NCBI GenBank assembly: GCA_963741955.1
Contig: CAVUKB010000005.1
Span: 384,001 to 448,000, forward strand
Direction of reading: 5' to 3'
DNA from: an uncultured Acidobacteriota bacterium
GTDB taxonomy: Bacteria > Acidobacteriota > Thermoanaerobaculia > Gp7-AA8
DNA: 64,000 nt
The notes beneath the pieces were generated by a model. The model was not told where the DNA came from. It saw only the letters and a program-made list of their open reading frames with translations, and ran no database searches. Positions 57,733 to 60,560 of this stretch are shown here, one piece after another. Every line of letters starts with the position of its first letter. The stretch's first letter is position 1. The translations under genes were made by a program, and so were the position numbers.

Positions 57733-58485
57733 TTCCGCGAAGCGGGTCGCGCGTTCCGCGGGTCGCGCGTCCTGTGGGTCGCGCGTCTCGCGCGAGGCTC
57801 CCCGGCATCCTGCCGGGGAGCGATGGCGGCAACGCCACGCAAAACGCGCATCTCGCGCCGCAGTCCGTTCGTCTCTCGACTCTCGGGACGATCCTCGTAT
57901 CTCGCACCAGGCAGGGCGGCGCGGGACGCCGCCCTGCATCGGGCGAGGACGCCCAACCCACGACTGTGGGTCGCGCGTCTCGCGCGAGGCTCCCCGGCAT
58001 CCTGCCGGGGAGCGATGGCGGCAACCAAACGCGGATCGCTCCTCTCGCGCCGCAGTCCGTTCGTCTCTCGACTCTCGGGACGATCCTTGTATCTCGCACC
58101 AGGCAGGGCGGCGCGGGACGCCGCCCTGCATCGGGCGAGGACGCCCAACCCACGACTGTGGGTCGCGCGTCTCGCGCGAGGCTCCCCGGCATCCTGCCGG
58201 GGAGCGATGGCGGCAACCAAACGCGGATCGCTCCTCTCGCGCCGCAGTCCGTTCGTCTCTCGACTCTCGGGACGATCCTCGTATCTCGCACCAGGCAGGG
58301 CGGCGCGGGACGCCGCCCTGCATCGGGCGAGGACGCCCAACCCACTGGGCATCGGGCGAGGACGCCCAACCCACTGGGCATCGGACGGGACGTCCAACCC
58401 ACGACTGTGGGTCGCGCGTCTCGCGCGAGGCTCCCCGGCATCCTGCCGGGGACTGGAGTTTGGCGTTTCTCGAGCAAGGCGCGAG

Positions 58486-59898
58486 CTACGAAGTGGCGTA
58501 CTGGACAGCCATTTCGGGGGTGACAGCGGATTTCGAGCGCTTCAGGTGTCGTGCGACGGGGGTCTGGAAGTCGGTGAAATTGGGGGGTTCGAAGTTGCGG
58601 ATGTGGCGAATGCAGGCGGATCGCATCGCGCGAAGGTACTGGCCGGTGGGTATTCGCCACTGATCGGGGATATCGTTGTCTCTCCACTTGGGCATCAGTT
58701 CGGGGGGCGCAGTGGAGCCGAGGCCGAAGCAATCGGCGGCAGCGAGGAGCATCATCGAGTAGACGGCTACGGCGAAAGCGGGCAGCGAGTCGACCGATCG
58801 CCGGTTGCGCACCTGCGCCTGGCCGACACCGAAGATCTGCTTTTCGTCGCGGTGATTGACCTCGATATCCCAGCGGCGGAAGTAGGCTTGGACGAGCTCG
58901 ACGAGCGAGAGTTTCAGGTCGGTACAGATCAGGAACGCCGGTTTGCGATACAGCAGGCGTGATTTCTTGCGGAGCCGATAGCCCAGTGGCCGGATCACGA
59001 CGAGCCGCAGAGGCAGTTCATAACCCGAAGTTTTCCAAAGCACGGGACCGATGGTCTTGATCGAACAGGCGTGTTCACGACCCGAGGCCCAGACTTGGAC
59101 CTGTTGCCAGTCGATGGATTGGTCCACGCGGAGTTGATCGGGTGTTGGGGCCTGATCGCCATACCAGCGCTTGCGTCCGCGAAGCGGTTGAGAGTTTGGA
59201 GGAAAGAACAGCTTCGCGTCGCCTCGGATGCGACCGATCAGGATCGTTCGTTCCGGCAAGTTCCGCAGAACCGTACGGTTGGTGTAACCGCCGTCAACCA
59301 CCGGCATCAGCACGCGCTCGCTCGCTCCGAGCTGGTCAAAGTCCTTGCGAGTTTGGATCAGCAGACGCGTTGCACCGATGGAAAGATTCTGCTCTTTCTG
59401 CTGGCGACGATACTCGGCACGTTCCTGCTCGGTTGCTCCGGCCCCCGGGCGAACCGCCGGAGGCTGGTGATTGAACCGGATCGGGAAGCTGCGCGCCGGA
59501 CCGGCAGACTGGCCAGTTAAAGGAACACTGATCGCAGCCTGAATGAACCGTTGGGCGCGGATCAAGTTCGTGTGGAAAGGCGGCGACATCGGATCGCGCT
59601 GATAACTCACGCCTGGGATCTTCATGCCCGTCTTGCGCAACTTCGTGTCATCCAGCGGCAGCACCAGCGGTGCGTCGAGCGGCAAGTACGCGAGCAGGTG
59701 TCGTTCGATGACTCTGAACATCTCGCTCACATCGAACCGACCCTCCGAGAAAACGCGATAGTCTGCCGACCAGTCCTGCTGCGGATCGCGGCCTGCTTCA
59801 ATCATTCCGCTTACCGTGTGTCGCCCGGTGCAGTTGAGCAGGCCGATGGCCAACCCACGAACCCGCTGAAGCACCCGAGCATCACAGGATCCATTCAA
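58486..59898 (-). CDS. DDE transposase (IS701/IS4 superfamily-like); true start uncertain
   Basis: LDDTKLRK, VVDGGY, GRKRWYG, YFRRWDIEVNHRDEK (Y-2-R-3-E-6-K signature). Confidence 0.9.
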   Translation of the reverse strand: MNGSCDARVLQRVRGLAIGLLNCTGRHTVSGMIEAGRDPQQDWSADYRVFSEGRFDVSEMFRVIERHLLAYLPLDAPLVLPLDDTKLRKTGMKIPGVSYQRDPMSPPFHTNLIRAQRFIQAAISVPLTGQSAGPARSFPIRFNHQPPAVRPGAGATEQERAEYRRQQKEQNLSIGATRLLIQTRKDFDQLGASERVLMPVVDGGYTNRTVLRNLPERTILIGRIRGDAKLFFPPNSQPLRGRKRWYGDQAPTPDQLRVDQSIDWQQVQVWASGREHACSIKTIGPVLWKTSGYELPLRLVVIRPLGYRLRKKSRLLYRKPAFLICTDLKLSLVELVQAYFRRWDIEVNHRDEKQIFGVGQAQVRNRRSVDSLPAFAVAVYSMMLLAAADCFGLGSTAPPELMPKWRDNDIPDQWRIPTGQYLRAMRSACIRHIRNFEPPNFTDFQTPVARHLKRSKSAVTPEMAVQYATS

Positions 59899-59938
59899 TT
59901 CGTCGAAGATCGCGTTGAATGAGCGAAGAAGATTTCGA

Positions 59939-60148
59939 TCAGCGTTTTTTTTTGACCCGCTTCGCTTCGACGGTTCCGGTCGGATCCTTTGCCCGCTTGA
60001 GGATCAGCGTTCGCTTGTCCTCGATGACCCATTCGACGATCTCACCGCGAATGAATTCACAAGCTTGGGCCACGGCCGCGGGAAGGTTCACGTACCACTG
60101 CCTGCTCTTTGCACGAGCGATCAGCTGCACTTTGGTTGGAAATCCCAT
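59939..60148 (-). CDS. AbrB/MazE/SpoVT-like DNA-binding protein (69 aa) inside the IS
   Basis: [20 protein letters not shown]...[34 protein letters not shown] fits the swapped-hairpin pattern. Confidence 0.78.
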
Positions 60149-60560
60149 GGTGACCTCCTTCTGGTCTAGTGATATAACTAGATACCACGGGACGAAAAAA
60201 AAGTCCAGAATTCCTGGACTTCCGCCCAACGACTCCGAGTTCCGCCAAACTCCAGTCCCCGGCATCCTGCCGGGGAGCGATGGCAGCAATCAAACGCAGA
60301 TCCCGCCTCTCGCGCCGCGGTCCGTTCGTCTCTCGACTCTCGGGACGATCCTTGTATCTCGCACCAGGCAGGGCGGCGCGGGACGCCGCCCTGCATCGGG
60401 CGAGGACGCCCAACCCACTGGGCACCGGACGGGATGTCCAACCCACTCGAGCATCGGACGGGACCTTCAGTCATCGAACAGGACGTCCAACCCGCTTGCC
60501 CGGGCTCGGGTTGAGCCCGGACCCACTCTCGCGAGATACTCCGCACCCGGAGGTCCTTCA

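Follow-up and report, generated by a model that had tools for sequence, protein, structure and literature searches.

How does an insertion sequence (IS) come to sit between two complete copies of the same DNA hairpin? The question is raised by a locus in an uncultured Acidobacteriota bacterium (Thermoanaerobaculia; Gp7-AA8), where we analysed a window of 64,000 nucleotides (assembly GCA_963741955.1, contig CAVUKB010000005.1, positions 384,001 to 448,000). Within this window, a 1803-bp IS with a transposase gene and a small upstream gene, orfA, lies in a tandem array of 192-bp units with repetitive extragenic palindromic (REP) hairpins (Table 1), and has the exact 21-bp direct repeat TCCCCGGCATCCTGCCGGGGA at either border, made up of the TCC loop and the nine innermost of the 11 stem pairs of the REP hairpin. 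As the asymmetric loop reads TCC in both copies, the repeat is a direct duplication of a pre-existing site and not an inverted one. The three intact units of the array each contain this hairpin once, as empty sites (57799-57819, 57991-58011 and 58183-58203), and the fourth unit is split by the IS with the hairpin kept on both halves. The terminal inverted repeat of the IS, CTGGAGTTTGGCG, is perfect over 13 of 13 bp and matches at 17 of 20 positions when extended to 20 nt. A soil-metagenome run (X1) contains a unitig of exactly 1803 nt, corresponding to 58453-60255, which starts and ends exactly at the IS ends and thus supports the boundaries independently, and its depth of 62.5, versus approximately 10 for the unique flanking contigs, fits five to six IS copies. 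The first-pass annotation of the window had described an 1803-bp IS with an exact 21-bp hairpin duplication, and the coordinates, the terminal inverted repeats, the empty units and the X1 unitig all agree with this. The explanation that we favour, and to which we would assign a probability of roughly 0.6, is that the IS represents an active IS701-related clade which would select its targets by DNA structure, attack them as a cruciform, duplicate the hairpin in doing so, and produce its transposase as a fusion made by slippage.

The source genome (5.44 Mb, 63.2% G+C) has five copies of the IS, which are 100% identical over 1803 bp. Exact direct repeats surround all five (20, 21, 24, 21 and 27 bp), every one of them a whole palindrome (Table 1), and because identical IS copies have different palindromes, the palindromes belong to the target site and do not travel with the IS. 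The same REP was hit twice (loci L004 and L005), with the IS in opposite orientation and with different cut points, and the REP is the target at just two of the five sites; the 19-nt core of the REP hairpin has 109 exact occurrences in the genome, or 181 when up to two mismatches are allowed. The genome contains no solo ends or miniature inverted-repeat transposable element derivatives (10 ends for 5 copies). All five sites lie between probable genes, as judged from open reading frames (ORFs) filtered on G+C content at third codon positions (GC3); the longest stop-to-stop frame across the REP-array site has 881 codons, and such frames are not discriminating in GC-rich genomes. Clear homologues of the element were found in two of 40 related genomes (G005 and G013), with a weak match in a third (G018, E 4.5e-4) that was used for no claim. 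The identity of the copies and the patchy occurrence of the element in relatives both suggest that it arrived and was active recently, and the IS is probably an active element.

A scan with the transposase over one genome per species returned 80 loci at 37-58% transposase identity, from metagenome-assembled genomes (MAGs) labelled as Thermoanaerobaculia and other Acidobacteriota, Planctomycetota, Verrucomicrobiota, Kiritimatiellae (Kiritimatiellales) and Lentisphaerae, as well as Nitrospirales, KSB1, Bacteroidota, Anaerolinea and Binataceae. The end motif CTGGAGTTTGG (at most two mismatches) was present at both ends of 58 elements (loci L001-L085), and 37 of these have a flanking repeat of 12-28 bp. 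Including an Opitutales copy which is interrupted by another IS, there are 38 elements with matching flanks, and the duplication, again 12-28 bp long, is palindromic in all 38. Two sets of copies on long contigs serve as independent replicates. The Opitutales genome contains a 1788-bp relative, for which all 16 intact copies have exact repeats of 18-25 bp, each with a different sequence, and the interrupted 17th copy has a 20-bp hairpin repeat; one of the differing sequences duplicated at these 17 sites is an AT-rich palindrome. Six copies of a 1815-bp relative are present in an Acidobacteriota MAG, with exact repeats of 20-21 bp for five copies and a repeat matching at 20 of 21 positions for the sixth, and five of the six lie within one REP-like hairpin family. 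Ten other single elements have repeats of 12-28 bp. The duplicated palindromes have no common sequence, ranging from GC-rich REPs to ATATAGTATACTATAT, and form hairpins with stems of approximately 4-13 bp and loops of mostly 3-4 nt, up to approximately 6 nt; the stems are 4-5 bp in the two shortest duplications, of 12 and 13 bp. The IS interrupting the Opitutales copy (L051:1538-2998, approximately 1450 bp, with ends ACAGCCATCCCA.../...TGGGATGGCTGT) is of a different kind, and provides an internal contrast in that it made an 11-bp non-palindromic duplication (GAAAAGAACTC), which is IS4-like behaviour. With 8000 candidates scored, 3376 homologues were found at E <= 1e-20, and the names among the matches listed are just 'hypothetical protein', 'transposase' and the like; the clade is large in metagenomes and essentially unnamed there.

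The position of the duplications relative to the hairpins follows a clear pattern. In all 37 duplications measured, the centre of the palindrome is the centre of the repeat, and measured from the outermost base pair of the stem the repeat reaches one base further per side in 23, is flush in five and reaches two bases further in one. The repeat borders sit at or near the stem ends in these 37 sites, and hence repeat length tracks hairpin size. A hairpin of at least 5 bp abuts the IS end in 104 of the 111 assessable flanks, versus 82 of 2028 control positions in the same loci, and for hairpins of at least 7 bp these numbers are 96 of 111 and 15 of 2028, respectively; chance is excluded as an explanation for the hairpin flanks. 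Exactly one unpaired base separates the stem from the IS end in 74 of the 104 hairpin flanks. As read from the genome sequences, the insertions show integration only at short hairpin-forming palindromes without a shared sequence, with joining points that are symmetric on both strands, on the 5' side of the palindrome and mostly one base outside the stem. This suggests that the element recognises the shape of the DNA and not its sequence.

The plasmid collection contained distant relatives only (75 records, approximately 23-26% transposase identity), of which we examined alphaproteobacterial elements on the Microvirga ossetica plasmid NZ_CP016618.1 (L100/L102/L103/L105) and the Roseomonas mucosa plasmid NZ_CP034927.1 (L101). 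Two identical Microvirga copies have nearly the same ends as the window element (CTGGAGTTTGGCC at one end, one mismatch at the other), and the variant end CTCGACTTTGGCC is found on a third Microvirga element and on the Roseomonas one. Ordinary 5-bp duplications (CTCAA, CTGAG, CTAAG and TTTAG/CTTAG) without a hairpin flank each of these four plasmid elements, with targets resembling a symmetric CTNAG-like pentamer, in agreement with the small stagger described for the family. The ISAba11 group of the IS701 family also makes 5-bp duplications. Because distant relatives with nearly the same ends give 5-bp duplications, hairpin targeting would be clade-specific and derived, and the change would therefore lie in target capture; on this comparison of sequences, hairpin capture is a derived property of one clade that kept the family ends.

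With regard to family placement, the 470-aa transposase ORF (58486-59898, minus strand) scored 171.9 bits with NF049999.1 ('IS701 family transposase'), just reaching the cut-off of 170, and the complete 505-codon open frame scored 177.1 bits, with profile positions 2-361 aligned. The first possible start codon, a TTG (59898), falls within the conserved N-terminus, and the frame is open for 35 codons further upstream; since NF049999 aligns from position 2 only when these upstream codons are read, the 470-aa ORF as called lacks its N-terminus. The sole Pfam match was DDE_5 (PF13546; 61.3 bits versus 27). Scores below the cut-off were obtained with the classical IS701 model NF033540 (53 versus 150), with NF049921 (21.3 versus 250), with the IS4 models (16-35 bits versus 115-250, alongside duplications that are hairpin-sized) and with the IS1634 model NF033559 (15.1 versus 100), and there was no IS1182 model among the eight NCBIfam matches at E <= 0.01. 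Each of the catalytic residues D, D and E, and likewise R, E and K from the YREK motif, is shared by at least 95% of the 53 distinct homologues, and the window element also has the Y, giving a full Y-(2)-R-(3)-E-(6)-K in AYFRRWDIEVNHRDEK (Y374, R377, E381 and K388 of the open frame). The element is thus predicted to be an IS701-like DDE IS from a distinct, widespread clade related to IS701. In the available text of De Palmenaer et al. 2008 (PMC2266710), the IS701 duplication is given as 'exactly four bps' in almost all of 27 elements, with approximately 10-bp duplications for IS4 proper and 5-6 bp AT-rich duplications for the IS1634 family, and YREK is described as mostly absent from IS701 members. 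The ends of the window element, CTGGAGTTTGGCG, differ from the IS701 terminal consensus ---YACT-Y--YR, which according to the same text does not cover the whole IS701 family (PMC2266710).

What kind of reaction could duplicate a whole hairpin? We propose that the palindrome is extruded as a cruciform, either spontaneously or by the transpososome, which would place its two 5' feet next to each other across a four-way junction, while in B-form DNA the same two positions are 12-28 bp apart and unmarked. In DDE transposition, each target strand is joined, on the 5' side of what will become the duplication, to a 3' end of the element. A transposase dimer whose active sites have the spacing needed for the relatives' stagger of 4-5 bp could reach both feet of the extruded hairpin pair, and these would be attacked by the two 3' ends of the IS. 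Since gap repair would follow joining at the two 5' sides of the palindrome, the whole stem-loop-stem would end up duplicated on both sides of the IS, and the length of the duplication would be set by the hairpin and not by the enzyme. Such a cruciform model would explain the symmetry of the cut points, the tracking of hairpin size by repeat length and the lack of a sequence consensus, and an occasional cut inside a longer stem would represent a junction that was incompletely extruded. RNA polymerase (or the ribosome) would slip on the A9 run to make the transposase fusion, so that activity would stay low. There are geometric precedents for such a reaction, which serve as analogy only and for which no homology is claimed: Cas1-Cas2 attacks both borders of the partly palindromic CRISPR repeat on opposite strands, resulting in duplication of the whole repeat, and RuvC, which has an RNase H-fold as DDE transposases do, cleaves a four-way junction symmetrically at two places. 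More tentatively, and at somewhat less than even odds, the clade may have switched from reading a 5-bp CTNAG-like sequence to reading the four-way junction itself, and would act as a Holliday-junction-style 'resolvase' in which the transposon 3' ends replace water.

We weighed three other explanations against the cruciform. It is very improbable that the flanking repeats do not derive from transposition, and are an assembly artefact, a by-product of repeats recombining or a piece of the IS itself: repetitive REP arrays are easily misassembled, and elements with unlike flanks do occur in short-read MAGs (see below), but the different palindromes around identical IS copies do not belong to the IS, many of the sites are unique sequence and not REPs, the X1 unitig has its boundary exactly at the IS ends, and three long or complete assemblies have exact matching repeats at 27 of 28 copies, with the 28th off by one base. 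Two related candidates were ruled out. Hairpin arms that are part of the IS, combined with duplication of a 3-bp loop, are incompatible with identical copies having different arms, and formation of the palindromes by hairpin opening (P-nucleotide-like) is incompatible with the palindrome pre-existing in unoccupied units and with loops that repeat directly. Improbable as well is a reaction on B-form duplex with an unusually long stagger, in which a symmetric dimer reads the half-sites of the palindrome. Long direct repeats of variable length are made by the IS4-related IS1634 and IS1549, for which we know of no report of palindromic targets, and the 5-bp CTNAG-like targets of the distant relatives are themselves symmetric; however, the palindromes duplicated here share no sequence, the length of 12-28 bp tracks the size of the stem-loop, and self-complementarity in B-DNA is undetectable for a protein that does not read the bases. 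The main rival to the cruciform is a hairpin folded in DNA that is briefly single-stranded (on the lagging-strand template, in a transcription bubble or on a transferred strand), used by the same element with the same symmetric joining, by two strand transfers at forks or one after the other. We consider this unlikely, while giving it serious weight, as some of the palindromes used are so short (stems of 4-5 bp in the 12- and 13-bp duplications) that folding would be much easier in single strands, and the lack of a target consensus is shared with other structure-reading transposases. Against it, duplication of the whole palindrome requires joining at the 5' foot on both strands, and hence structure on both or an extra step, and both IS orientations are found at one REP (L004 versus L005).

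Several observations also weigh against target selection through an extruded cruciform. The cruciform is a structure that we infer, and the sequence itself reveals no cruciform formation. Palindromes with stems of 4-12 bp and loops of 3-4 nt extrude poorly in vivo, and targets of 12 and 13 bp with stems of 4-5 bp could hardly extrude unaided. Eight of the 37 repeats end 1-3 bp inside a longer stem, and thus the cut is not strictly at the foot of the largest stem. A comparison of the left flank of L003 with 20 relatives gave no orthologous empty site outside the REPs, with the coding part alone matched (in G004, at 71%). The OrfA-transposase fusion protein is likewise something that we infer, from the arrangement of the reading frames. 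Finally, 21 of the 58 two-ended elements have unlike flanks, a set which includes short MAG contigs of a few kb, and yet almost every flank is a hairpin; different hairpins on the two sides are found in L007, L017, L020, L024, L025, L027, L043, L044, L050, L052, L057, L059, L067, L074 and others. We attribute the unlike flanks to probable collapsed repeats in short-read MAG contigs, or to recombination or rearrangement between IS copies. L024 and L025, which come from two different MAGs, have one flank hairpin in common, on opposite sides.

Table 1. Positions of the insertion sequence, its target site and its genes in the window, with the palindromes duplicated at the five genomic copies and the upstream ORFs of two related loci.
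Feature	Position	Strand	Description
Insertion sequence	58453..60255	- (both genes minus strand)	1803 bp; from sequence and repeat analysis
Left copy of 21-bp target duplication	58432..58452	.	9-bp stem, TCC loop and 9-bp stem of REP hairpin
Right copy of 21-bp target duplication	60256..60276	.	Same 21 bp as left copy
Terminal inverted repeat, transposase-distal end	58453..58465	+	CTGGAGTTTGGCG
Terminal inverted repeat, orfA-proximal end	60243..60255	-	Reverse complement of CTGGAGTTTGGCG
Upstream part of 192-bp tandem REP array	57744..58431	.	Three intact units with unoccupied hairpin
Rest of interrupted fourth unit and degenerate array end	60277..60500	.	Copy at 60256-60469 is 89% identical to reference unit
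Transposase open frame	58486..60003	-	505 codons stop-to-stop, plus stop codon
Predicted catalytic residues	D 59650-59652, D 59293-59295, E 58861-58863; YREK 58840-58884	-	D118, D237 and E381 of the open frame
orfA	59939..60148	-	69 aa ([10 protein letters not shown]...QWYVNLP...EF.RGE.VEW...); GGAGG 6 nt before ATG; ends KKKR-stop in/after A run
A9 run (T9 on plus strand), presumed slippage site	59945..59953	-	orfA and transposase frames meet
Terminator-like hairpin and T run	60191..60223	-	33-65 nt inside orfA-proximal end; consensus match only
Own-genome duplication, 20 bp			GCCACGAC-TCCA-GTCGTGGC
Own-genome duplication, 21 bp			T-CCCAGGAC-TCC-GTCCTGGG-C
Own-genome duplication, 24 bp			ACGCGGGGCC-TAAC-GGCCCCGCGT
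Own-genome duplication, 21 bp			Window REP hairpin, TCCCCGGCATCCTGCCGGGGA
Own-genome duplication, 27 bp			Window REP in opposite orientation, cuts three bases further out per side
Upstream ORFs of other subclades	L047:2591-2938, L077:1940-2251		Pfam-tested

The small gene orfA is strongly conserved, as seen in 30 distinct sequences at related loci and in 14 columns that do not vary among the 19 sequences aligned, and has no family match in Pfam or NCBIfam, even at E <= 10. A profile search against PDB sequences gave one weak match (7xi6_A, 'C56', E 0.17), and a role of OrfA as AbrB/SpoVT-like DNA binder is a lead and not a finding. The A run is found at orfA codon 61-66 in all 24 distinct elements scored (A9 in 19 and A8 in five), with the transposase in the -1 frame relative to orfA in 17, in the +1 frame in seven and in none in the same frame, and the transposase frame is open from the A run to the conserved DWSADY motif in 23 of the 24. 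As one homopolymer serves both the -1 and the +1 arrangement, transcriptional slippage is favoured over a directional ribosomal frameshift, and a +1 slippage group has been described for IS3 elements (PMC6211511). The predicted features of IS elements with programmed slippage are all present, with a homopolymer at the junction, a downstream frame without a start of its own and a fusion needed for a complete protein, and the transposase seems to be produced solely in fusion with OrfA, as a protein of approximately 552 aa, via slippage on A8-A9. Other subclades have no orfA or A run, and contain a different small upstream ORF with HARE-HTH (E 1.7e-8) or DUF6788 (E 2.8e-11), as tested with Pfam for L047 and L077; for L052, L059, L064 and L074 the exchange of the upstream ORF was judged by sequence likeness alone. 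Hairpin duplications of 28, 19 and 25 bp are found in the subclades represented by L047, L064 and L077, respectively, and since subclades with other upstream ORFs still duplicate hairpins, hairpin capture would belong to the transposase core and not to OrfA; an accessory module, predicted to bind DNA, is exchanged between subclades. The terminator-like hairpin in front of orfA could possibly shield the transposase genes against read-through from outside, with the caveat that terminator-like consensus matches in this region are not above the number in shuffled sequences.

Each 192-bp unit of the array contains the 25-nt REP hairpin and a second, different one, an imperfect palindrome of 47 nt, and of these the IS took only the short REP hairpin; the tail of the array consists of 28-29-bp sub-repeats (GACGCCCAACCCAC...). 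In a second metagenome run (X2), the IS end behind 60255 runs into sequence that is absent from the window site and is again a GC-rich palindrome, which suggests a further insertion site in a related strain. No contig bridging the unoccupied window site was found in the three metagenome runs, of which X3 contributed nothing to the region, and the four joints in the region all fall within the repetitive array, with sides of only 20-30 nt.

Hairpin targeting by a DDE-type IS is known from IS1272/TnSha1 (IS1182 family, staphylococci), which like the window IS uses hairpin-forming inverted repeats, often terminators, without a primary-sequence consensus and in both orientations (PMC4923244, PMC5678879). 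The transposases are unrelated at the level of hidden Markov models (HMMs), and what the window IS shares with the IS1182 family is the targeting of palindromes or hairpins, i.e. behaviour only, and not transposase homology. In the available literature, some IS1182 members target palindromes and IS1272 deletes them (PMC4923244, PMC5678879), with hairpin targeting accompanied by deletion described for TnSha1/IS1272 by Furi et al. 2016 (PMC4923244); as described there, IS1272 deletes the stem-loop and leaves no duplication, whereas the window IS duplicates the whole stem-loop. Attack on the 5' feet of a cruciform ('pathway b' of Wan et al. 2017, PMC5678879) was predicted on theoretical grounds to duplicate the whole stem-loop, and the clade described here looks like a natural example of this pathway, in a transposase lineage unrelated to IS1272. 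With the IS701 family the window IS has in common the best-matching HMM (NF049999), DDE_5 and the near-identical ends of the distant plasmid relatives, and it differs from that family, as far as the available descriptions go, in its palindromic duplications of 12-28 bp, its full YREK and its two frames joined at A9. The REP-targeting elements IS1397 and ISKpn1 (IS3 family) and IS621 and ISPpu10 (IS110 family) make little or no duplication. Like the window IS they land in REPs or palindromic intergenic units, but in the published accounts their protein or bridge RNA reads one given REP sequence and they insert at one position, whereas the window IS takes any hairpin (PMC3184786; 10.64898/2026.03.19.712850). 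Our literature search found no published whole-hairpin duplication by an IS701-type element, although ISfinder or Additional file 8 of PMC2266710 might record such cases. A DDE IS that targets hairpins is known; what appears to be new is the duplication of the hairpin, the transposase lineage that makes it, its spread over several phyla and its contrast to relatives that duplicate 5 bp.

The first-pass annotation had gone further by taking the element for an IS701/IS4-like IS that may cut symmetrically on an extruded cruciform, in a manner unexpected for its transposase type. The placement as an IS701-like DDE element is borne out by the NF049999 score (171.9 versus 170) and Pfam DDE_5, the symmetry by duplications centred on the hairpin both here and in the 37 of 37 measured, and the unusual character by the 4 bp given for the family (PMC2266710) and the 5 bp of the distant relatives. 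It had allowed for short or random duplications at other copies, for an assembly or recombination product and for a group already known to behave like this; the other copies proved to be palindromic too, with none short or random, the three long or complete assemblies exclude an assembly artefact, and no publication was found on this behaviour in the group. The extruded cruciform that it suggested is a plausible proposal, which competes with hairpins in single strands at forks. It had also cited whole stem-loop duplication for some IS1182 members; the available papers describe palindrome targeting for that family and deletion for IS1272. Its suggestion that REP arrays are a safe harbour survives in part: the hairpin sites do seem harmless, but the target is any hairpin-forming palindrome, with a REP at two of the element's five own sites.

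Of the Opitutales sites examined, three of four (L033, L036 and L072) are intergenic or at gene ends, based on GC3-filtered ORFs and Pfam searches of the flanks, and the fourth (L032) may sit at the extreme 3' end of a beta-propeller gene. Because both sides of an insertion keep a complete hairpin, the two neighbouring genes would each retain the REP or terminator function beside them, and insertions are probably mostly harmless, and reversible by recombination or slippage between the repeats. Landing in REPs and terminator-like intergenic hairpins would explain how the IS is able to proliferate while doing little harm.

Target choice by DDE transposases is usually ascribed to short motifs, DNA bending or host proteins, and here sequence comparison alone yields a clean rule over 38 independent insertions in MAGs labelled as several phyla, namely that the duplication is the hairpin, usually with one additional base per side. 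The deletion made by IS1272 and the duplication made by this clade would together represent the two predicted results of attacking a cruciform at its 3' feet and its 5' feet, respectively, and the use of extruded DNA structures by transposases in vivo becomes directly testable. The hairpin-targeting clade and its relatives with the same ends and 5-bp duplications form a natural pair for locating the protein determinants of structure-specific capture, which may also be of use in the design of integration tools. One candidate for such a determinant is the C-terminal extension of approximately 80 residues past the HMM match. If the clade does read the four-way junction, each insertion would be a record of a palindrome that had undergone extrusion inside a living cell, or that the enzyme was able to extrude there, and the transposase would be a natural integrase that is independent of sequence and directed by structure.

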